Assembly: GCA_942492765.1 (NCBI GenBank)
Contig: OW818634.1
Location: 665,159-729,158 of the forward strand
From: an uncultured bacterium
GTDB lineage: Bacteria; Patescibacteriota; Patescibacteriia; Patescibacteriales; UBA12465
Length of the DNA stretch: 64,000 nt
Direction: 5' to 3'
Below, piece after piece: positions 861 to 9,268 of the stretch. Numbering within the stretch: position 1 is the first letter of the stretch; every line of letters begins with the position of its first letter. The position numbers and the translations under genes were made by a program. The notes under the pieces are model-generated. The model saw nothing but the letters and a program-made list of their open reading frames with translations, had not been told where the DNA came from and ran no database searches.

Positions 861-1430
861 ATAATATACAGTTTCTTCCCAGATTATGCCCCGTTCGGTG
901 CAGCGGCATTTTTCCTGGAACCAGAATTTCCCGAAGATGACTAGGGTGCTGTCTAAGACGGGGACTAGCGCATCGTAAAATTCTTCCAGTTCCCGAGCTG
1001 TAGCGATGACTTTTTTTGCCTTGTATTTACCGCGCCTCATAGTTTGGGCACAGAACTTTTCCCAGGGAGACATTTTAAAGTTAGAAAAAACTTTATTATA
1101 TCGGCCTAGCCAATAATAGTAATTATTAACTAGAATTGCCTCTTTGGTGACTAGTACCTTATATTTTTCATATAACGGCCGGTAATCATCTTTGAAATAA
1201 TGCGAATCAAAAGTTTCAGCTTTTTCAAAAATGTCTAGGAGTCTCTTATCGCTAGCAAGGTATTCTTTGGGGGTTTTTCTTCCTGAATTTTTTGAAAAAC
1301 CGCCATATCTTTTTAATAGCATTTGAGTCTCCTTCGAGTACCCTTCATCACTCTGAGAAATTTGGGAGAATGCGGATAAAGATAAGAAAAAAGATAATCC
1401 GACAGCTAAAAATACAGTCAGGTTTTTCAT
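858..1430 (-). CDS. Hypothetical secreted protein
   Basis: ATG-started ORF with N-terminal signal-like 'MKNLTVFLAVGLSFFLSLSAFSQ'. No recognisable catalytic motif. Visibly AT-richer than its neighbours. Confidence 0.6.
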   Translation of the reverse strand: MKNLTVFLAVGLSFFLSLSAFSQISQSDEGYSKETQMLLKRYGGFSKNSGRKTPKEYLASDKRLLDIFEKAETFDSHYFKDDYRPLYEKYKVLVTKEAILVNNYYYWLGRYNKVFSNFKMSPWEKFCAQTMRRGKYKAKKVIATARELEEFYDALVPVLDSTLVIFGKFWFQEKCRCTERGIIWEETVYY

Positions 1431-3347: not shown

Positions 3348-4481
3348 TTATCTCTTTTCAGTTGTAAACAGTTTTAGCTCTCCGTCTGCCGGAATATTAA
3401 GTTTTTTGAGCAAGGCCTCTTTTTCCGGGCCGTCCTCCATTACTTCGGCTTGGCCGTAATCCCGAATCTTTATGGGGATAAGCTCTATCTTTTCCCAGCT
3501 GTTATTCTTCCAACTTAGTTTGGCGATCAATCCTTGGCTAGTCTCCAGCGACCACATTTGATCAAAGATCAGGTTGCCCAGAGAATAGATAATCGGCTTG
3601 CCTAGATAGGTTTCCCATACTTGCGGCCAATGCGGATGATGGCCGATAACCAGATCGGCGCCGTTCTCTATGGCTGTATGAGCGAAAGCGACCTGCTGCT
3701 TATTCGGCTCGGTCGTATATTCTTCGCCGGCATGCATCATGACTATAATAACGTCAGCCTCGCTTTTTAGGTTCTTGATATCATCTGCCATCTTACCTAT
3801 ATTCATGCTAGCGATGCCAGGACGCTTATTAGTAGCGATCGAGTCATCTTCTGGATAAGCATAGTCTAGAAAACCGAATCTTTCGTTATTAACGATAAAC
3901 ACTTTGGCTTTATGGGCTATTTCTTCGTTATTTCCGGCGCCAATCGCCTCTATTTTGGCTTCGGATAAGACTGCTTGCGTCTTTGCTAAGCCCTTAGCGC
4001 CTTGATTCATGATATGGTTATTAGCTAAAGCGGCGAGATCCACGCCGGATTCTATAAGCCCAGCAGTAGCTTCCGGATTGGCCTTGAACATAAACGACCC
4101 GGTCGGCACGAAATAATTTTTAGATTCCAAGAAAGGAGACTCCAGATTAACAATTGTCAGATCGGCGGCGCTTAAGAAATCAGCAATCTTAAGGAACGGC
4201 CAGGAATAATCCTTATTCTTTTCTATCTTGTCATTAACATGGCGAGAGAGCATGACGTCGCCGCCGAAAATAAGAGTAGTGGGCCGTATTTCCGTTAAGG
4301 GTAATTGTTGTCCATCAGTGGCACCGGGCTTCGAGGGGGAAGAAAATATATTAGAGATGATATTGCCTGAGGTATCTGGAGCGGCCGGAGAAACGGCTAT
4401 GCGAAATAAGAAAAATATCGCTAATACTGAAATAATAGCGACAGAGACGATGATTATGATCTTTTCAGTTCTCTTATCCAT
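3348..4481 (-). CDS. CapA/PGA_cap-family metallophosphatase-like protein, membrane anchored
   Basis: 'GGDVMLSR', 'NLESP', 'ANNH', 'MHAGEEY', 'GHHPH' signature series. N-terminal TM 'IIIIVSVAIISVLAIFFLF'. Confidence 0.8.
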   Translation of the reverse strand: MDKRTEKIIIIVSVAIISVLAIFFLFRIAVSPAAPDTSGNIISNIFSSPSKPGATDGQQLPLTEIRPTTLIFGGDVMLSRHVNDKIEKNKDYSWPFLKIADFLSAADLTIVNLESPFLESKNYFVPTGSFMFKANPEATAGLIESGVDLAALANNHIMNQGAKGLAKTQAVLSEAKIEAIGAGNNEEIAHKAKVFIVNNERFGFLDYAYPEDDSIATNKRPGIASMNIGKMADDIKNLKSEADVIIVMMHAGEEYTTEPNKQQVAFAHTAIENGADLVIGHHPHWPQVWETYLGKPIIYSLGNLIFDQMWSLETSQGLIAKLSWKNNSWEKIELIPIKIRDYGQAEVMEDGPEKEALLKKLNIPADGELKLFTTEKR

Positions 4482-4541
4482 GATTATATTATAGCATTAA
4501 ATCAGAGCTTTTGCGGGTAAAATAGGGAATATGGGATCAGA

Positions 4542-4614: not shown

Positions 4615-4686
4615 GGTCCCTTCGTCTAGTGGTTAGGACGTCAGGTTTTCATCCTGTTAACAGGGGTTCGATTCCCCTAGGGACTA
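4615..4686 (+). tRNA. tRNA-Glu (UUC)
   Basis: Hand-folded 72-nt cloverleaf: acceptor GGTCCCT/AGGGACT, D-arm GTCT..GGAC, anticodon loop TTTTCAT (anticodon TTC), and T-arm AGGGG-TTCGATT-CCCCT. No encoded CCA. Confidence 0.9.
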
Positions 4687-6172
4687 CTATTGGAGAATTA
4701 GCACTTGCTAGTTCTCTTTTGTTTTGTAAAATTAGCGAAAGATTAGGTGTTCGATTTCCTGAAAAATCAAAAATGGGTTTTTCCGTAAAAATCAAACTCT
4801 GATATTTTAGTTTATCTTCATAACTAGCTTTTTTATAAGCCGGAGCAAGAGAAGATAAGACTTTAAAAACTTTGTCTACTTCTTTGAAGATATTCCGGTT
4901 ATAAGACGGCTGATCGCAAGCGGTAGCCTGAGTTTCTGAAATATTTTGTTTTACTTTTTCCATTTCGTTTTTAAAATCCTCATCATCCAATAAATCTTTT
5001 TTCTTCATTTCAATCAGTTTAGCTTTTTCCGTTTGGAGAACGGCTAATTTTTCTTTAGTTAAATTTGAGTTATTGTTTTCCTCGCCCGTTTTTTCATTAA
5101 AGACGTCTATCAATATTTTCTTATAGTTTTTTAAAACCACTTCACTCGGCGTAATTCTTTTTAAAAAGTCATGAAATTCTCCCTCTAGTTTATCTTTGGA
5201 AATGCATTTTAAGCCGTGGCAGTCTTTGTTATAACATTTATAAAACGGATAGAGTTTTCCGCTTTTGCCTTTGGAAAAATGAGCGGTCAATGGCCGGCCA
5301 CAATGAGGACATAAAATAAAATGTCGGAGCGGAAAAGATTCGTTAACTCTGGCAATAGAAATATTATCGCCTTTATTTCCAGTTTTGATTTGTTTTTGGC
5401 ATTTATAGAAGATTGATTCGTTAATTATTTGCTCGTGAGTGCCTTGATATTCTTGGCCTTTGACGGTCATTATTCCTAGATAGAATTTCTCGGTTAATAT
5501 CTTAAATAAAGTTTGGCTAGTTAATTCTTTATTTTTCCACGATTTGAATCCGGCTTTGATCATTAACTTCCGTATTTCTTCCATTTGATAGGCTCCGGTT
5601 GAGAATTTATCAAAGGCCATTTTAATAATCTCCGCTCTTGGTCTGTCTATCGTTATAATGGCTCTATTTTGCTCATCACGCTTGTTTAGATAACCGAGAG
5701 GAGCTTTATAGCACCAAATGCCTTGCTTAATTTTTTCAAGCATACAAGACGATACTCTTTCACTTCTAACATCATTATCGAATTGAGCGAACGAGGCCAT
5801 TATTGTGCCGATTAGTTTTCCGCTCGGTGTTTTATCGACTGTTTCCGTGGCGGAGATAAACTTAATTTTTAATTCTTCTAAGGCCATTAAAATAGTAGCG
5901 TAATCTTTTACGTTTCTTGATAGTCTATCAATTTTATAGACGATAACGGAATCAAGATTTTTATAATTCTTGGAGCAATAACTTAATAATTCCTGTAGGC
6001 CTTTACGGTTTACAGTTTTAGCGGACAGGCCATCATCGTGGAACATCTCAACAATTTCAATATCATGATTAAGGGCATATTCTTGGCAGGCCTTTTTCTG
6101 TTGCTCAAGACTAACCCCGTTTTGGGCTTGGTCTTCGGTTGAAACTCGGTAATAAATAATTCCTTTTTGCAT
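4649..6172 (-). CDS. Large serine recombinase (integrase type)
   Basis: 'GIIYYRVSTEDQ' catalytic-Ser motif, 'GLSAKTVNRKGLQELL', 'VYKIDRLSRN', recombinase domain 'APLGY', and Zn-ribbon 'CPHCG...FYKCYNKDC'. A coiled-coil tail follows. Start moved to the ATG at 6172 (MQKG), 16 codons inside the track's start at 6220. The last ~13 codons are antisense to tRNA-Glu. Confidence 0.85.
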   Translation of the reverse strand: MQKGIIYYRVSTEDQAQNGVSLEQQKKACQEYALNHDIEIVEMFHDDGLSAKTVNRKGLQELLSYCSKNYKNLDSVIVYKIDRLSRNVKDYATILMALEELKIKFISATETVDKTPSGKLIGTIMASFAQFDNDVRSERVSSCMLEKIKQGIWCYKAPLGYLNKRDEQNRAIITIDRPRAEIIKMAFDKFSTGAYQMEEIRKLMIKAGFKSWKNKELTSQTLFKILTEKFYLGIMTVKGQEYQGTHEQIINESIFYKCQKQIKTGNKGDNISIARVNESFPLRHFILCPHCGRPLTAHFSKGKSGKLYPFYKCYNKDCHGLKCISKDKLEGEFHDFLKRITPSEVVLKNYKKILIDVFNEKTGEENNNSNLTKEKLAVLQTEKAKLIEMKKKDLLDDEDFKNEMEKVKQNISETQATACDQPSYNRNIFKEVDKVFKVLSSLAPAYKKASYEDKLKYQSLIFTEKPIFDFSGNRTPNLSLILQNKRELASANSPIVVPRGIEPLLTG

Positions 6173-6212
6173 AGAATTAAAGGTTAATAAATAAAAAGAG
6201 AGCGGTAAACTG

Positions 6213-6332
6213 TTGGACACAACTTAGCAAAAGCCTTGTTGTACAGCCACCGCTCTCTTTATATCAAAACGACTTATCTCGTCGCTTGGACGTAAAAATA
6301 AAATGGCTCTCTGCTATATAAGTTGTGTCCAA
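6213..6332. repeat. Nested inverted repeats upstream of the recombinase gene
   Basis: TTGGACACAACTTA (6213-6226) / TAAGTTGTGTCCAA (6319-6332), perfect 14 bp. Nearby pair AGAGAGCGGT (6197-6206) / ACCGCTCTCT (6248-6257), perfect 10 bp. Confidence 0.6.
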
Positions 6333-6357
6333 GTGTAATTCTATCATATTTTTGTAT

Positions 6358-6519
6358 TTATTCAATATTATTAGTTTTCTTATAAATGTTATTTTTATAG
6401 AAGTTATAGGCGAGATAGGCCAGTTGATAGAGATCACGCCTCATGAGAGTGAGCTCTTCTTCGGAATAATCCGAGGCATGCGAGCCGAGATTCTTCCGGA
6501 AACTGTCCATACTTATCAT
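6358..6519 (-). CDS. Small hypothetical protein (53 aa), not in supplied ORF track
   Basis: The ATG at 6519 translates to MISMDSFRKNLGSHASDYSEEELTLMRRDLYQLAYLAYNFYKNNIYKKTNNIE and ends with TAA. It is co-oriented between Rep and the recombinase and is more protein-like than the hydrophobic plus-strand ORF 6325-6549. Confidence 0.35.
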   Translation of the reverse strand: MISMDSFRKNLGSHASDYSEEELTLMRRDLYQLAYLAYNFYKNNIYKKTNNIE

Positions 6520-6569
6520 GTTTTTGGTTGCACATATGTTTTACTTTAAAAGGGTTTAATCAAAGACTG

Positions 6570-7370
6570 CTAACCGTTTTTAAAGAGGCGGTAGCGAACC
6601 TCTCCGACATATTCGGAATGATACTGCTTATCGAGCAATAATTCAGGAGGCGATTTTAAGCTGTTAAAATACTCTCTGGCCTTAACCCCGATGAAGACTT
6701 CGGGCTTTATTAACTGGCGAGAATAAAAGATTTTTTTCTTGCCGGCTAGTCGGCCGTCAAACAATTCTTTACCGATATACTTAGCGACATATAAACCAAC
6801 ACGAGAAACGTGGCGGACGTTATTAATCTTAACGAAACCGAATTTCCAGATATCAGCTAATAGGCTATTAGCCGTATGGGGTAAGTTAGACAAAACGTGA
6901 TAATGAATATTTCCGCCGAACTCCTTTTTAATCTTAGAGTGGAAATAATAATCTCCTTGAAATTCGGGAACGGCTAAATATCGTAAATCCGGATAATGTC
7001 GTTTTAATCTTTTAATAAAGTTAGAAAAGATTAAATTACACTTGGTAATATCCGTAAACGAGCCGTCGTCTGATTTCTTGTCGTCAAAGGTTAGAGTAAT
7101 GAAGACTTTTAATTCGGGATTTGAATTAACGAGTCGGACAATATTAGCTCTTGTCCGGCGAAACGAAAATTCATTTCTTTTAAACCGATTATGTTCTTTA
7201 TTTTCTTTTTCCTCTTCGCTTTCTTTTGCCTCTGCCACTTTGAGCTTTTTCTTGCTTTGTCTTCTTTTCCGTTTGTGGTTGATTCTAATCGCTTGTTCGT
7301 AGTTATACACTTCTATCAAATCGCCTGATCTGATAAGTTTTTGCCGATAAGCTAATGGTTTGATATCCAT
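6570..7370 (-). CDS. HUH-superfamily rolling-circle replication initiator (Rep)
   Basis: Motif 1 'VFITLTFDD', motif 2 'NIHYHVLSN' (HUH), and motif 3 'GLYVAKYIGKE' (catalytic Tyr + Lys). This is the same three-motif order as the phiX174/gokushovirus VP4 and pC194-type Reps. The N-terminal tract is basic. Confidence 0.75.
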   Translation of the reverse strand: MDIKPLAYRQKLIRSGDLIEVYNYEQAIRINHKRKRRQSKKKLKVAEAKESEEEKENKEHNRFKRNEFSFRRTRANIVRLVNSNPELKVFITLTFDDKKSDDGSFTDITKCNLIFSNFIKRLKRHYPDLRYLAVPEFQGDYYFHSKIKKEFGGNIHYHVLSNLPHTANSLLADIWKFGFVKINNVRHVSRVGLYVAKYIGKELFDGRLAGKKKIFYSRQLIKPEVFIGVKAREYFNSLKSPPELLLDKQYHSEYVGEVRYRLFKNG

Positions 7371-7385
7371 AGGCTAACGGCGTTA

Positions 7386-7417
7386 AGTGTGCCTATAGTC
7401 AAGTTAATAGGCACACT
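7386..7417. repeat. Perfect hairpin, candidate Rep nick site / double-strand origin
   Basis: AGTGTGCCTAT (7386-7396) / ATAGGCACACT (7407-7417) with a 10-nt loop. On the Rep-coding strand the loop reads TAACTTGACT. It lies 16 nt upstream of the Rep start codon. Confidence 0.55.
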
Positions 7418-7441
7418 AGTTTTTGTTCTTGATTAACACTA

Positions 7442-7522
7442 CCGGTCGCCCCCTGTTTTTCTTCTTCGGCTCCCCCACGGGGGATCCGCCGAAGAAGAAA
7501 AAAACAGCGGGGGTCGAGCCGG
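7442..7522. repeat. ~80-nt imperfect palindrome (long hairpin/cruciform)
   Basis: CTTCTTCGGC (7461-7470) pairs with GCCGAAGAAG (7488-7497). T5/A7 runs, CCCCC/GGGGG and CCGGTCG/CGAGCCGG extend the arms. The apical part is CCCCCACGGGGG (7472-7483). Confidence 0.7.
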
Positions 7523-7797
7523 ACTATGTTTACATCAAAGGGACACTAAAAGAAGTTAGAGACGTCTTACTGGGGCTTAGCAGTAGCCCCGATAAGACGG
7601 CCACTCGGCCAAACAAAAAACACAAGCCATATATCCGGATATATTGCTCGTGTTTTAAGTTGAATTGGCAAAGATTTAGACTTTGCTCGTTATTATATTG
7701 AAGACTGCGTGTTTAAATTCATGGACGTAATCTGACTAGCCGTAGCTAGGTTTTATCTTCCTGCCTTATTATTGTTTATTAATAAGTCTATGAGGGC

Positions 7798-7826
7798 ATT
7801 ATAGCATAAAATAGGGGGTGAATCAA
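7798..7826 (-). promoter_or_regulatory. Near-consensus sigma-70 promoter reading toward Rep
   Basis: Minus strand: TTGATT (7826-7821), 17-nt spacer ending in TG, TATAAT (7803-7798). It sits immediately after the stop of the upstream gene, about 420 nt before the Rep ATG. Confidence 0.45.
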
Positions 7827-7843
7827 GAGGTAAAATTATTTAA

Positions 7844-9046
7844 TTATTCGCCAATTTCAATTTTGTTTAAATCAGAATTTTTTACACCAAGACCTAATTT
7901 TCTCATAGCATTATAAGCCTCAGCTCCATCCTTTAAATAATGAGCTACGCCATTAAAATCAATATAATAAGCTTGCCCCTTATCTTCAACCTTTAGTAAA
8001 ATTTTACCACTTTGTTTTTTGGCTAAATTTTTGTTCTTCTGTATTTTTTCTAAATTGCTATTTGTAATACCAATTCCAAATTTTCTCATAATATTATACG
8101 CCTCCTCGCCATTAGCCATATAATATCTTTTTCCGTCTTTAGGATTAATATACCACGCTTCACCGTGAGATTCTGTTTGTAATAATATTTTACCCTTCAA
8201 CCTTGAAGATAGTTTTGTATCAATTTTAATATCACTACTAGTTGCCTTATAAGACACAGTACTAATACTAATTTCTTTTACACATTTTCCATTATCTAAT
8301 TTAAAACCATTAGAACAATGACAACCATATTTATTGCCATATGAATTTTCCCCTTGCTGAAACTGACAATATTCATTGTAGCTAGTGCATTTATTATTAA
8401 AAATAATATACCCATCGTTACAAGAGCAAGAATCCTGTCCCTCGTTATAATATGAATTACTTCCGTAATTAGCTATACAGGAATTATTATTTAAAATAAT
8501 GCTTTGTTTATTTAAAGAATCTAACTTCGCTTGATAAACGAGGTCATTAATCTTTTGTAAATTATCGGCAGATTGCTGTTTTTGCAACTTCTCGTCACTC
8601 ACACATTCATCATATTTGTCTTTTAATTCAGAATATAAATTTATAGCATTTCTACACGCCTGCAGTCTTAAATTGTAGTCGTTAGTAATACCAGCAACAT
8701 AAGAAGTACTGGCACTACTAAGCACGCCTCCAGCTCTTTGTCCAATAAGCCCTTTAGCATTACTAATAGCTCTCTGAGCCTCTACTTGCAGTGCTGAATA
8801 CTGATATTCCGTACAAGAAGCTACGGGATAATTACATTGACTACCGGTATCGAAACACTCATCTGTAGTATAATAACCGACGCTGCTGTCTTTCCATCCG
8901 TCATTACACACAACGCTTCCATCCAAATCAGCCCCATAAGAGCAATTAACACCTAAATGGGAAGAGCACGACCCACTTGTAGCATTGCTTACATTAGGTA
9001 AAAAAATAAAAAAACCAACTAACGCCAACAAAAAATATTTTTTCAT
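7844..9046 (-). CDS. Secreted Cys-rich protein with two C-terminal ~50-aa tandem repeats
   Basis: Signal-like 'MKKYFLLALVGFFIFLPNVSNA' (ATG at 9046; the track start at 9064 is TTG). Many Cys in the N-terminal and central parts, with a coiled-coil middle. Repeats are 'GKILLQTESHGEAWYINPKDGKRYYMANGEEAYNIMRKFGIGITNSNLEKI' and 'GKILLKVEDKGQAYYIDFNGVAHYLKDGAEAYNAMRKLGLGVKNSDLNKI'. Confidence 0.7.
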   Translation of the reverse strand: MKKYFLLALVGFFIFLPNVSNATSGSCSSHLGVNCSYGADLDGSVVCNDGWKDSSVGYYTTDECFDTGSQCNYPVASCTEYQYSALQVEAQRAISNAKGLIGQRAGGVLSSASTSYVAGITNDYNLRLQACRNAINLYSELKDKYDECVSDEKLQKQQSADNLQKINDLVYQAKLDSLNKQSIILNNNSCIANYGSNSYYNEGQDSCSCNDGYIIFNNKCTSYNEYCQFQQGENSYGNKYGCHCSNGFKLDNGKCVKEISISTVSYKATSSDIKIDTKLSSRLKGKILLQTESHGEAWYINPKDGKRYYMANGEEAYNIMRKFGIGITNSNLEKIQKNKNLAKKQSGKILLKVEDKGQAYYIDFNGVAHYLKDGAEAYNAMRKLGLGVKNSDLNKIEIGE

Positions 9047-9268
9047 AAAATACAAAATTATCAAAAAAGGTCTCCCGAGACGGTTAACACACCCTTTCGG
9101 ATATGCGCCTAGATAGCGAAAACCGGTCAGAAGACCATCTCTGCTATCTAGGGCTTAAACCATGCCTCAATAAATTAAGGTTTAGGTCTATCAATTGTAC
9201 TTAAAATTTACCAAAAAATGGTTAAAAAGTCAATTTATATTTTGCACTGATTATGATATACTATATAA

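Follow-up and report, generated by a model that had tools for sequence, protein, structure and literature searches.

The window analyzed here, a 64,000-nt stretch of DNA from an uncultured bacterium of the Patescibacteriota, contains a module of approximately 3.2 kb (about 4672 to 7840) that comprises an origin region, an HUH Rep gene, a 53-aa open reading frame (ORF), and a gene for a large serine recombinase that abuts a tRNA-Glu gene. Rep, the 53-aa ORF, the recombinase, and the origin all lie on the minus strand. The tRNA-Glu(TTC) gene, called by ARAGORN on the plus strand (4615-4687), lies at the left end of the element, serves as its integration target, and is overlapped by the 3' end of the recombinase gene (4649-6220, minus strand). 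The recombinase matches the Pfam families Resolvase, Recombinase, and Zn_ribbon_recom as well as a PHROG integrase family (E 1.7e-90), and its true start is likely the ATG at 6172. Between Rep and the recombinase lies the conserved 53-aa ORF (6358-6519, minus strand), which tblastn placed at the same position in approximately 60 loci with 36-100% identity and which has no match in Pfam, PHROG, or NCBIfam; our guess is that it encodes a directionality factor or a copy-control protein. At the right end, a scan identified a promoter-like site on the minus strand (7798-7826; TTGATT-17 nt-TGCTATAAT) that matches at 10 of 12 positions, has a TG extension, is kept in 9 of 10 aligned loci, and points towards the origin region and Rep. 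The first-pass annotation of this DNA, which described the Rep gene and two hairpins upstream of it, says nothing of an integrated element that carries a serine recombinase and adjoins a tRNA gene.

The Rep gene (6570-7370, minus strand) encodes a 266-aa HUH rolling-circle initiator. Its product matches Pfam PF23343 (REP_ORF2-G2P; E 5.4e-15) with 55.9 bits, above the curated cut-off of 27.8, and also matches phrog_3584 and phrog_3419; PHROGs describes the matching families as replication initiation proteins. The three motifs that had been read from the translation are present and occur in order, with FITLTF at residues 90-95, H156-Y-H158, and Y194-VAK-Y198-IGK201. In an alignment of 16 homologs with 38-79% identity, H156, H158, Y194, Y198, and K201 are invariant, as are motifs 1-3. 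A profile match above threshold together with the ordered motifs FxTLTF, HUH, and Y-x3-Y-x2-K places Rep among the two-tyrosine, phiX174 gpA-like initiators. The closest free-living relatives of Rep are encoded by plasmids of 1.5-2.2 kb, in which rep is the only sizeable gene, and by phages, in which they are replication proteins. A structure search gave no significant match of Rep to solved HUH domains, a PDB sequence search with the Rep profile gave no match, and a scan of viral contigs with Rep found no relatives.

The same module recurs in approximately 100 Patescibacteria genome and metagenome loci that we fetched, where the order Rep-(orf53)-serine recombinase-tRNA is preserved next to three different targets, namely tRNA-Glu, tRNA-Gln, or tRNA-Ser. 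The recombinase follows Rep in every locus with enough sequence, and homology between genomes stops at approximately 4672 on the left and 7826-7843 on the right. With an integrase at one end, a tRNA target, and differing genomic contexts, the module has the features of an integrative element. In one locus (L010), the 19-nt 3' end of the tRNA, ATTCCCCTAGGGACTACTA, is repeated at the recombinase end; direct repeats at the ends of the element were not convincing, which is expected because the recombinase is of the serine type. Among assemblies, as opposed to reads, no contig had the terminal overlap, permuted gene order, or recombinase-then-origin order of an excised circle. An exact look-up of the two flanking proteins, performed to locate an empty site, found neither on record elsewhere. 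Many contigs break inside the long palindrome or Rep, and we took these breaks as assembly artefacts of inverted or repeated sequence.

Directly upstream of Rep, an inverted-repeat search confirmed the small hairpin that had been described there (7386-7417, minus strand), which has an 11-bp stem whose arms at 7386-7396 (AGTGTGCCTAT) and 7407-7417 (ATAGGCACACT) are 100% complementary and separated by 10 nt. The stem does adjoin the Rep ATG, from which 15 nt separate it. Read on the minus strand, which is that of Rep, the loop is TAACTTGACT, and the Rep ATG follows ACTTGAC at a distance of 29 nt. A comparison of 71 unique sequences revealed a conserved core, TTAACTTGACTATAGGCACAC (7387-7407, minus strand), within the hairpin. 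In generalized form, T(T/A)(A/G)ACTTGAC(T/C)ATA-N-GCACAC, this core occurs once, on the Rep strand and just upstream of Rep, in 88 of the 88 sources, which are those with upstream sequence and which reach down to 40% Rep identity. The distance from the core to the Rep start codon ranges from 8 to 110 nt. Substitutions in the core appear in only two sources, L032 and L056, with one each, and the Rep of L056 is also frameshifted. The core varies little or not at all among the 71 unique sequences; ACTTGAC and GCACAC show no change, unlike the positions next to them, and CTATAGGCACAC is the part of the core that we propose as the putative Rep recognition sequence. A covariance model built from the hairpin (R1) matched the Rep strand of the window once, at 7382-7421 (E 1.6e-12); the one further match there was this palindromic stem on the opposite strand (E 0.16), and in related loci R1 matches just upstream of Rep.

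Conservation of the stem is less strict than that of the loop motif. A stem of at least 7 bp surrounds the core in 54 of the 71 unique homologous sequences, compared with 1.8% of controls, and 79% of stem cells are paired, compared with 14-49% when the partner was slid. Formal covariation is limited to one pair (C-G in 29 sequences, U-A in 12, and G-C in 1) because the 3' arm is nearly invariant. Little or no stem, with a longest exact stem of at most 5 bp, was found around the core in 14 of the 71 unique sequences (approximately 20%) and also in Firmicute plasmids, which indicates that the hairpin itself is not essential. Since the stem is kept in approximately three-quarters of lineages, it appears to be accessory to a nick site that is defined by sequence.

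Perfect hairpins with stems of at least 11 bp and loops of 3-20 nt are not confined to this locus. Under a first-order Markov model, 0.47 such hairpins are expected per 64 kb, and approximately 10 distinct ones occur in the window, so the stem is non-random but not unique. Most of the others look like terminators, and their number is the basis for considering that the structures upstream of Rep might be chance inverted repeats or ordinary transcription terminators. That explanation is contradicted by the preservation of position, strand, and sequence or structure of both hairpins in approximately 100 loci, down to 40% Rep identity, and we regard its probability as negligible. No T run follows either structure and a terminator scan called neither, which led us to reject the terminator reading. 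It is by conservation that the small hairpin is set apart from the other hairpins of the window.

The phage phiX174 gpA protein nicks within CAACTTG^ATA, and initiators of the pC194 family nick CTTG^ATA. Both sequences had been given in the first-pass annotation, and both matched sequence records when we checked them: AACTTGA...CTATAG is present at the annotated phiX174 origin, and CTTGATA is present in the pC194 origin. The likeness to these origins that had been suggested is real for the shared core and fails for the exact consensus, as the window has CTTGACTATAG, which contains neither CTTGATA nor the AT spacer of phiX174. In both the 30-bp phiX174 origin (CAACTTG^ATATTAATAACACTATAGACCAC) and the element, the nick heptamer AACTTGA is followed by CTATAG, and in both the site is on the sense strand of rep; however, phiX174 places an 11-nt AT-rich spacer between these parts, whereas in the element CTATAG comes straight after ACTTGA. 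The proposed resemblance between Rep and gpA also held, in that motif 3 of Rep (VGLYVAKYIGKE) aligns with the nearly identical gpA sequence VGFYVAKYVNKK, including Y343 and Y347, and both proteins have two tyrosines three residues apart. Outside motif 3, gpA has no similarity to Rep that BLASTP can detect; it is a 513-aa protein of another Pfam family. The phiX174 origin also differs in forming no hairpin and in being located within gene A, whereas the core of the element lies upstream of Rep, and the element has no capsid genes.

Three cryptic mini-plasmids, pGTG5 (Geobacillus, 1540 bp), pHT926 (Brevibacillus, 1786 bp), and pCCIFB3C5_2 (Clostridium cadaveris, 1618 bp), encode Reps that are homologous over approximately 97% of the length with approximately 30% identity. 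Like the element, they carry a motif, T(T/A)ACTTGATTATAG, which precedes rep by 40-85 nt on the strand of that gene, with TTAACTTGATTATAG at the position that matches the core. Unlike the element, these plasmids are free, have no integrase, and reside in Firmicute hosts; their motif lies outside a hairpin loop, and the sequence past TATAG differs. The VP4 proteins of Gokushovirinae (Microviridae) are also detectable homologs of Rep, and gokushovirus Bog1183_53 has an 11-bp hairpin with the loop TTACTTGAT, which contains ACTTGA, on the coding strand. In contrast to the element, gokushoviruses are viruses with capsid genes, the Bog1183_53 hairpin is far from VP4, and its GCACAC-type stem sequence is on the opposite arm. 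The pC194/pUB110 family (Rep_1) resembles the element in having an HUH initiator, a CTTGA core upstream of rep, and a hairpin of the single-strand-origin type upstream of the double-strand origin. Rep_1 is nevertheless another Rep family, which uses one tyrosine plus glutamates (PMC5703833), whereas the element has Y-x3-Y, and pC194 has CTTGATA where the element has CTTGACT. A fragment of the pC194 origin has been used functionally (PMC7072734). Papers that contain the nick sequences were limited to primer lists, save one on engineering of the pC194 origin.

The earlier proposal that the small hairpin is a candidate nick site is therefore supported at the level of sequence by the presence of its core in all 88 sources, in the plasmids of Firmicute Reps with approximately 30% identity, and in a gokushovirus hairpin. 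A CTTG^A-type core that is close to rep, on the Rep strand, and conserved with its cognate Rep is what would be predicted for a double-strand origin. The core appears to behave like origins of the phiX174/pC194 type, yet it is a member of neither exact consensus group. By analogy, cleavage is predicted at ACTTG^AC, between G7400 and A7399 on the minus strand. We consider it highly probable that the small hairpin and its core form the Rep nick site. The hairpin might instead mainly regulate rep, as an operator, a TTGACT promoter, or a hairpin that affects translation from the ATG 15 nt away, with the nick site elsewhere. Such a role would fit the -35-like TTGACT in the loop, the position of the hairpin against the start codon, and the ability of pUB110-type Reps to coat the origin and thereby repress their own promoter (PMC5703833). 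However, phiX174 has the shared core inside gene A at a mapped cleavage site, the gokushovirus hairpin that contains it is intergenic and does not adjoin a rep gene, and the element contains no other conserved candidate nick motif; a mainly regulatory hairpin is accordingly very improbable. The promoter version was rejected, as the TTGACT loop has no -10 at usable spacing and the promoter scan called none there.

The second structure, a long imperfect hairpin on the minus strand (7429-7538, with a core at 7442-7522), has a T-rich 5' arm, a GC-rich apex, and an A-rich 3' arm. The palindrome had been placed at 7442-7522, which is correct for its core, with a perfect center of 10 bp; the perfect center is in fact 15 bp (TTTTTCTTCTTCGGC/GCCGAAGAAGAAAAA), and folding widens the structure to 110 nt. 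The region folds strongly as single-stranded DNA: positions 7371-7540 gave -43.9 kcal/mol, compared with -19.7 +/- 2.8 kcal/mol for shuffled sequences (z = -8.5). Folding recovered a hairpin of 57-136 nt in 73 of 73 unique homologous upstream regions. MAFFT with RNAalifold recovered only the middle helix, which is conserved in sequence, because indels misalign the lower stem, and conservation was therefore judged by folds of each sequence and by alignment of arm against arm. In the lower stem, sequence differs between groups and complementarity is kept, with 2854 Watson-Crick positions compared with 179 mismatches. Every lineage retains the long hairpin by compensatory change of the whole helix, and the polarity of its T and A arms relative to Rep is fixed in all lineages. 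Among these phylogenetically non-independent sequences, G.T pairs show a modest bias in favour of the Rep strand (54 versus 13 with boundaries from the Rep-strand fold, and 61 versus 30 with symmetric arms). Within the stem, the middle segment T7CT6.GGCGG / GCCGA6GA4 is conserved in sequence beyond what pairing demands. An Rfam scan of 6100-8000 returned only sub-threshold matches of microRNA precursors to the palindromes, which we took as chance. An attP role for the palindrome was rejected, since the palindrome remains whole in the integrated state.

Single-strand origins of rolling-circle plasmids are commonly placed 5' of the nick. Their position relative to rep varies (PMC5703833). The long hairpin conforms to this placement, as it is a long imperfect palindrome in non-coding DNA directly 5' of the predicted nick on that strand, and it ends 11 nt from the small hairpin. 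Long hairpins also lie directly 5' of the motif in pGTG5, pHT926, and pCCIFB3C5_2, and that of one Firmicute plasmid carries GAGCGTAGCGAAG, which is like GAGCGTAGCGAAA of pC194. Elements of the ssoA type contain RSB and CS-6, TAGCG(T/A). TAGCG is absent from 7429-7538, in which we found no ssoA or ssoU signature, so that the hairpin, if it is a single-strand origin, is of an undescribed type. We give roughly even odds to its being specifically a single-strand origin.

The main competitor, which we judge to be rather unlikely, holds that Rep or a host protein binds the long palindrome as a duplex or cruciform, making it the 'bind' part of the double-strand origin, or else that the palindrome forms a structured leader in the Rep mRNA and thereby controls Rep expression or copy number. 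Known origins have separate 'bind' loci for their initiators (PMC5714925), and conservation of the middle stem in sequence suggests sequence-specific recognition. Furthermore, the promoter-like site at 7798-7826 reads through the region to Rep and we found no such site nearer Rep; it probably transcribes the whole region, and the hairpins would therefore also form in the Rep mRNA leader. Fold energies of the long hairpin are approximately equal on both strands, and the excess of G.T pairs on the Rep strand suits RNA as well as displaced single-stranded DNA. However, Rep bind sites are typically smaller than this structure, which spans 57-136 nt and has a compensated lower stem. Where it sits and which way it points relative to the nick agree with a single-strand origin, and unrelated long hairpins occur at the equivalent place in the Firmicute plasmids. 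On neither strand does a T run come after the GC-rich apex; an A run does, and the structure is therefore not an intrinsic terminator or attenuator.

Based on these findings, we propose, with a probability of roughly 0.7, that the module is a 3.2-kb rolling-circle element integrated at a tRNA gene, and that the small hairpin and the palindrome are its predicted leading- and lagging-strand origins, respectively. Excision from the tRNA-Glu 3' end by the recombinase would yield a supercoiled circle, in which Rep would recognize the core. In the source lineage, extrusion of the 11-bp hairpin may expose the loop as single-stranded DNA. By analogy with phiX174 CAACTTG^ATA, Y194 or Y198, together with the HYH metal site, would cleave ACTTG^AC at G7400/A7399 and stay bound to the 5' A. 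A host polymerase would then extend the 3' OH and displace the Rep-sense strand; after one round, the second tyrosine would cut the regenerated site, and ligation of the displaced strand would yield a single-stranded circle, as in the general rolling-circle mechanism (PMC5714925; PMC5703833). The hairpin at 7429-7538 lies immediately 5' of the nick and would therefore be the last segment displaced; folded on that strand, it could serve as the single-strand origin at which host enzymes prime the complementary strand. A broader proposal, to which we assign somewhat less than even odds, is that these elements form an undescribed and widespread class of minimal integrative rolling-circle plasmids of Patescibacteria that shuttle between a tRNA-integrated state and an autonomous circle; that the origin and the Rep active site are an ancient matched pair, ACTTG^A(Y)TATAG / Y-VAK-Y, common to phiX174-like Microviridae, gokushoviruses, and Firmicute mini-plasmids; and that the T/A-armed hairpin is a new type of single-strand origin adapted to a reduced replication machinery.

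An origin of this kind is expected upstream of a rolling-circle Rep, and the finding itself is therefore ordinary. Its value is in the context, which is a nick site predicted to the nucleotide and a candidate lagging-strand origin for a family present in hundreds of Patescibacteria contigs. To our knowledge, Patescibacteria have few described mobile elements and hardly any genetic tools. Literature searches found no description of the element, and its family is widespread in Patescibacteria and previously undescribed, with an origin of an ordinary kind. Replicating or integrating vectors could naturally be built from the 3.2-kb unit, which combines a defined origin with an initiator and a serine integrase that targets tRNA genes, and the nick core and catalytic motif common to phiX174, gokushoviruses, Firmicute mini-plasmids, and these elements offer a handle on the co-evolution of initiators and origins.

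The combination of an integrase, an HUH nicking protein, and a nick site, with integration into tRNA genes, is shared with integrative elements that undergo rolling-circle replication once excised, namely actinomycete pSAM2-type elements, ICEBs1, and streptococcal integrative mobilizable elements. A functional single-strand origin is present in ICEBs1 (PMC4595007), and the streptococcal elements pair serine integrases with PHA00330-type Reps (PMC5357655). For the latter, an integrase paired with a Rep-like protein has been proposed to act in transfer, and by the same token the core and hairpin could be an origin of transfer at which Rep, acting mainly as a relaxase, would nick the element after excision for its conjugative transfer or another form of single-strand transfer. 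Elements with tyrosine or serine integrases do carry Rep-like 'relaxases', one class of which has a PHA00330 domain (Coluzzi et al., 2017; PMC5357655); for these domains, that report cites rolling-circle initiators of viruses and plasmids, including the work of Ebisu (1995) on pHT926, whose Rep is homologous to that of the element. Moreover, pC194-type Reps can serve as relaxases with ICEBs1 (PMC5703833), and the nick chemistry and site would be identical. However, the element consists of only three ORFs in 3.2 kb, with no coupling protein, mating-pore component, or other transfer or accessory genes, and the nearest free-living relatives of Rep are the rep-only plasmids and phage replication proteins described above. 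Conjugation systems are rare in Patescibacteria, and a long hairpin 5' of the nick is expected of a replicon. We therefore consider a transfer origin improbable and favour the replicative element described above, which further differs from these elements in its Patescibacteria hosts and in having a large serine recombinase at the tRNA 3' end. Some Rep homologs weakly match Pfam RepSA, the family of pSAM2.

The region upstream of Rep contains two inverted repeats that were described in the first-pass annotation. An inverted-repeat search confirmed the coordinates of the smaller one, which comprises a perfect 11-bp repeat (7386-7396, AGTGTGCCTAT, and 7407-7417, ATAGGCACACT) with 10 nt between its arms, reads TAACTTGACT across the loop on the minus strand, and lies 15 nt from the Rep ATG. 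The long imperfect palindrome at 7442-7522 was also found where claimed, with a perfect core of 15 bp (TTTTTCTTCTTCGGC/GCCGAAGAAGAAAAA) instead of the 10 bp first given, and adding flanking pairs extends it to 7429-7538. Folding 7371-7540 as single-stranded DNA, a check that had been proposed, resulted in -43.9 kcal/mol versus -19.7 +/- 2.8 for dinucleotide shuffles (z = -8.5). Markov-1 random sequence is expected to contain 0.47 perfect, short-loop hairpins of 11 bp or longer per 64 kb, and approximately 10 are present in the window, mostly terminator-like, which suggests that the small stem by itself is non-random yet not special. A further perfect 11-bp inverted repeat, which is AT-rich, lies within the Rep coding sequence (7003-7013/7025-7035).

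Rep is encoded on the minus strand (6570..7370) as a 266-aa ORF that contains FITLTF, HYH, and YVAKYIGK, the three motifs previously attributed to it. Matches to Pfam PF23343 (REP_ORF2-G2P, E 5.4e-15) and to PHROGs of replication-initiator type identify Rep as an HUH rolling-circle initiator, and both tyrosines and both histidines are invariant across the family. No solved structure matched Rep by sequence and none was significant by fold, with a confident model of Rep (pLDDT 81). The same strand carries, downstream of Rep, a 53-aa ORF and a large serine recombinase, in which Pfam identifies Resolvase, Recombinase, and Zn-ribbon domains and which matches a PHROG integrase (E 1.7e-90). The 3' end of the recombinase overlaps tRNA-Glu (4615-4687), with the ORF running through the 3' half of the tRNA (4649-4687); large serine recombinases do not usually target tRNA 3' ends. 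In the related locus L010 (8685-8703), the last 19 nt of tRNA-Glu, ATTCCCCTAGGGACTACTA, are present both in the intact tRNA and at the recombinase end, approximately 190 nt away, which points to this duplication as the attachment core. DNA homology between the window and other genomes extends from the tRNA to ~7826-7843 and then ends. The order of origin region, Rep, (53-aa ORF), and serine recombinase is found in every locus with enough sequence, with the recombinase end next to tRNA-Glu in the close group and to tRNA-Gln or tRNA-Ser in distant groups. Based on gene content, tRNA overlap, synteny, and homology limits, we conclude that 4672-7840 is a 3.2-kb integrated element, to which both the hairpin and the palindrome are internal. 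The assemblies revealed neither an excised circle nor an empty site. A 12-bp inverted repeat (AAAGAGAGCGGT...ACCGCTCTCTTT, 6188-6266), located between the 53-aa ORF and the start of the recombinase, precedes a T-rich stretch on the minus strand and may terminate transcription between rep and the integrase gene. The neighbouring minus-strand gene (7844-9064) encodes a 406-aa protein with two C-terminal repeats of ~60 aa; homologs of this repeat domain are located immediately beyond the element's origin end in several other genomes (L010, L042, L047-L049, and L075), and the gene is probably a conserved host gene beside the tRNA target.

Searches with Rep yielded 140 homologous protein clusters, 21 loci in species-representative genomes, and 379 metagenomic stretches, 80 of which were fetched; no relatives were found in viral contigs. 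Judged by record titles, from which all taxonomy was taken, the homologs are mostly from Patescibacteria (Falkowbacteria, Parcubacteria, and Shapirobacteria), with a few third-party assemblies titled otherwise. Literature searches found no description of these elements, and the element appears to be an undescribed, minimal tRNA-integrating rolling-circle replicon common in Patescibacteria. The host element is more interesting than its origin, although neither should surprise a specialist in rolling-circle replication; it is a possible vector backbone for a hard-to-manipulate group and allows precise, cheap experiments. In a distant group (L013-L020 and L081-L096; tRNA-Gln target, Rep identity ~42%), the origin region is preceded on its own strand by an intrinsic terminator and a conserved ORF of 357 aa (4550-5623 in L016) that lacks a Pfam match, which suggests that these elements may be larger, at ~4.3 kb. 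Two family elements, L064 and L066, share a contig (Ga0209099_1000003, 131550-145702), on which they have the same orientation and are separated by ~5 kb, and genome JBAXPN01 has three loci (L001, L006, and L021), which indicates that several copies per genome are possible. Many contigs start inside the long palindrome or Rep (L002, L045, L062, L084, L085, and L093) or end inside Rep (L001, L006, L053, L054, and L059). Assembly probably broke at inverted or repeated sequence in these cases, and such ends would also be expected if free and integrated copies co-exist.

Conservation in homologous Rep loci, which had been proposed as a check, was found for the sequence and, in most lineages, for the stem. 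A core, in which ACTTGAC is followed by ATA and GCACAC, occurs once, on the Rep strand upstream of Rep, in 88 of 88 sources with upstream sequence (79 identified by covariance model and 9 more by pattern). ACTTGAC was unchanged in 71 unique sequences, with the exception of one G, an invariance that was partly imposed by the search pattern and with which a model-based search and an alignment of unselected upstream regions agree; positions a few bases away vary freely. Two loci depart from the core by one substitution each: L032 (3949-3989, AATTTGAC), in which Rep is intact, and L056 (416-454, AACTCGAC), which has a frameshifted Rep (467-1259) and appears to be decaying. Of the two stem arms, the 3' one belongs to the invariant block, and the 5' one varies yet stays complementary. 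An exact stem of at least 7 bp was present in 54 of the 71 unique sequences, versus 1.8% of controls in which a random 39-mer of the same locus replaced the upstream flank. Stem cells were paired in 79% of cases, versus 14-49% with the partner slid by 1-3 columns, and one stem position shows compensatory change (C-G 29, U-A 12, G-C 1). Loop length ranges from 10 to ~28 nt. In about one-fifth of the unique sequences, the local stem is slight or absent, and several of these have a short outer stem around the whole core instead. Because the core is near-invariant and the stem is slight or absent in that fifth, the alignments indicate that the conserved object is a sequence, usually though not always in a hairpin loop. 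Conservation also excludes chance or a terminator as the origin of the hairpins.

Using tblastn, we found Reps ~30% identical over ~97% of their length on the cryptic plasmids pGTG5 (1540 bp) and pHT926 (1786 bp) and on a 1618-bp Clostridium cadaveris plasmid, and homologs in Microviridae and small inovirus-like genomes. All three plasmids carry the core motif on the rep strand 40-85 nt upstream of rep (TTTACTTGATTATAGTG, TTAACTTGATTATAGCG, and TTTAACTTGATTATAGGG, respectively). Both phiX174 and pC194 are cleaved after the G of CTTG, and the nick sequences given for them in the first-pass annotation held up: in the phiX174 record, A4306, inside CAACTTGATATTAATAACACTATAGACCAC, is marked as the start of viral-strand synthesis, which agrees with this cleavage position, and the pC194 origin contains CTTGATA. 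The phiX174 origin shares AACTTGA with the window core TAACTTGACTATAGGCACAC and, once its AT-rich spacer is removed, also CTATAG, a post hoc match with a chance of ~0.006. Residues 340-351 of phiX174 gpA (VGFYVAKYVNKK, catalytic Y343 and Y347) align with VGLYVAKYIGKE of Rep (Y194 and Y198). The gokushovirus Bog1183_53, whose VP4 is a detectable homolog of Rep, has an intergenic, perfect 11-bp hairpin on the coding strand (4479-4509; arms AGCACACTTAC and GTAAGTGTGCT, loop TTACTTGAT). This hairpin has the same motif in its loop and is a candidate for the viral origin; its stem shares GCACAC/GTGTGC with the window, but the arms are swapped. The pC194 origin fragment is functional with RepH (PMC7072734), and double-strand origins generally combine nick and bind sites (PMC5714925).

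The presence of the core in all 88 sources, three plasmids, and phiX174 supports the original reading of the small hairpin as the double-strand origin or nick site. The most likely position of Rep cleavage, ACTTG^AC, is between G7400 and A7399 of the minus strand; CTATAGGCACAC would be the recognition sequence of Rep, and the hairpin may help expose the loop in supercoiled DNA. The predicted origin would work like those of the phiX174/pC194 class but matches the exact consensus of neither. That the small hairpin is instead a promoter or operator is a weak alternative, as a -10 element is absent and the same core functions within gene A of phiX174. Rep could also be a relaxase and the core its transfer site, as proposed for streptococcal integrative mobilizable elements that combine integrases with Rep-like proteins (PMC5357655). 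The chemistry and site would be identical. Both the lack of any coupling or transfer gene in the element and its mini-plasmid relatives favour replication.

A single long hairpin of 57-136 nt was present in 73 of 73 unique upstream regions folded, ending 10-40 nt before the core. The sequence of its middle, T6-7 C T5-7 (C/T)GGCG... / ...GCCG A5-6 G A4-5, is conserved, and the lower stem differs wholly in sequence between groups with complementarity kept (CGACCCCCGCTG/CAGGGGGCG, CGGCTCTCTG/CAGAGACGGCCG, CCCCCCAAGCATTG/CAAGCTGGGGG, GCTCCTCCTCC/GGAGGAGTGGGG, and CCGGCTGCTGCAG/TGGCAGCCGG, 5' arm/3' arm). Comparing each arm with the reverse complement of the other resulted in 2854 Watson-Crick positions and 179 mismatches. 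Because both strands have T before the GC-rich apex and A after it, we rejected a terminator. Polarity on the Rep strand is fixed, with the T-rich arm always 5' and the A-rich arm always 3'. G.T pairs number 54 on the Rep strand versus 13 on its complement with boundaries from the Rep-strand fold, which is a biased estimate, and 61 versus 30 with symmetric arms, a modest signal among sequences related to one another. On the strand expected to be displaced, the hairpin lies directly 5' of the predicted nick, a common location of single-strand origins in rolling-circle plasmids. Such origins, which fold into long structures that host enzymes prime, are active in a single orientation (PMC5703833). 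Long hairpins also lie directly 5' of the motif in the three Firmicute plasmids (pGTG5, pHT926, and the C. cadaveris plasmid), one of which carries GAGCGTAGCGAAG, which resembles GAGCGTAGCGAAA just upstream of the pC194 origin. The palindrome had been proposed as a single-strand origin or Rep-binding element; position and polarity fit the former, to which we assign about an even chance. The window hairpin has no TAGCG element, so as a single-strand origin it would be of an undescribed type, and an Rfam scan of 6100-8000 revealed no known RNA family. The 10-mer CGGCGAGGCT, common to the L057-type apex of the long hairpin (TCGGCGAGGCTTGTCC, found in one element group) and the nick-side hairpin of pC194 (~960-985, minus strand), is possibly shared by chance.

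Alternatively, the long hairpin could act in RNA, within the Rep mRNA leader, or serve as a binding site in duplex form. The right end of the element carries a strong promoter-like site (TTGATT-17 nt-TGCTATAAT; 7826..7798, minus strand), which points to the origin and Rep and is kept in 9 of 10 aligned loci. No promoter closer to Rep was found, and therefore the origin region is probably also the Rep mRNA leader. From this location, transcription would yield either a ~420-nt leader or a non-coding transcript of its own. The neighbouring gene at 4481 has a near-identical TGCTATAAT just 6 nt before its ATG, and mRNAs in this genome may therefore be leaderless. The stretch separating the promoter from the long hairpin (7540-7790, minus strand) is conserved and non-coding, with no ORF of at least 40 aa on the Rep strand and further hairpins at 7563-7599, 7612-7661, and 7736-7749. 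On the plus strand, 7736-7749 is followed by GTTTTATCTT and resembles a small terminator, which makes an antisense copy-control RNA conceivable.
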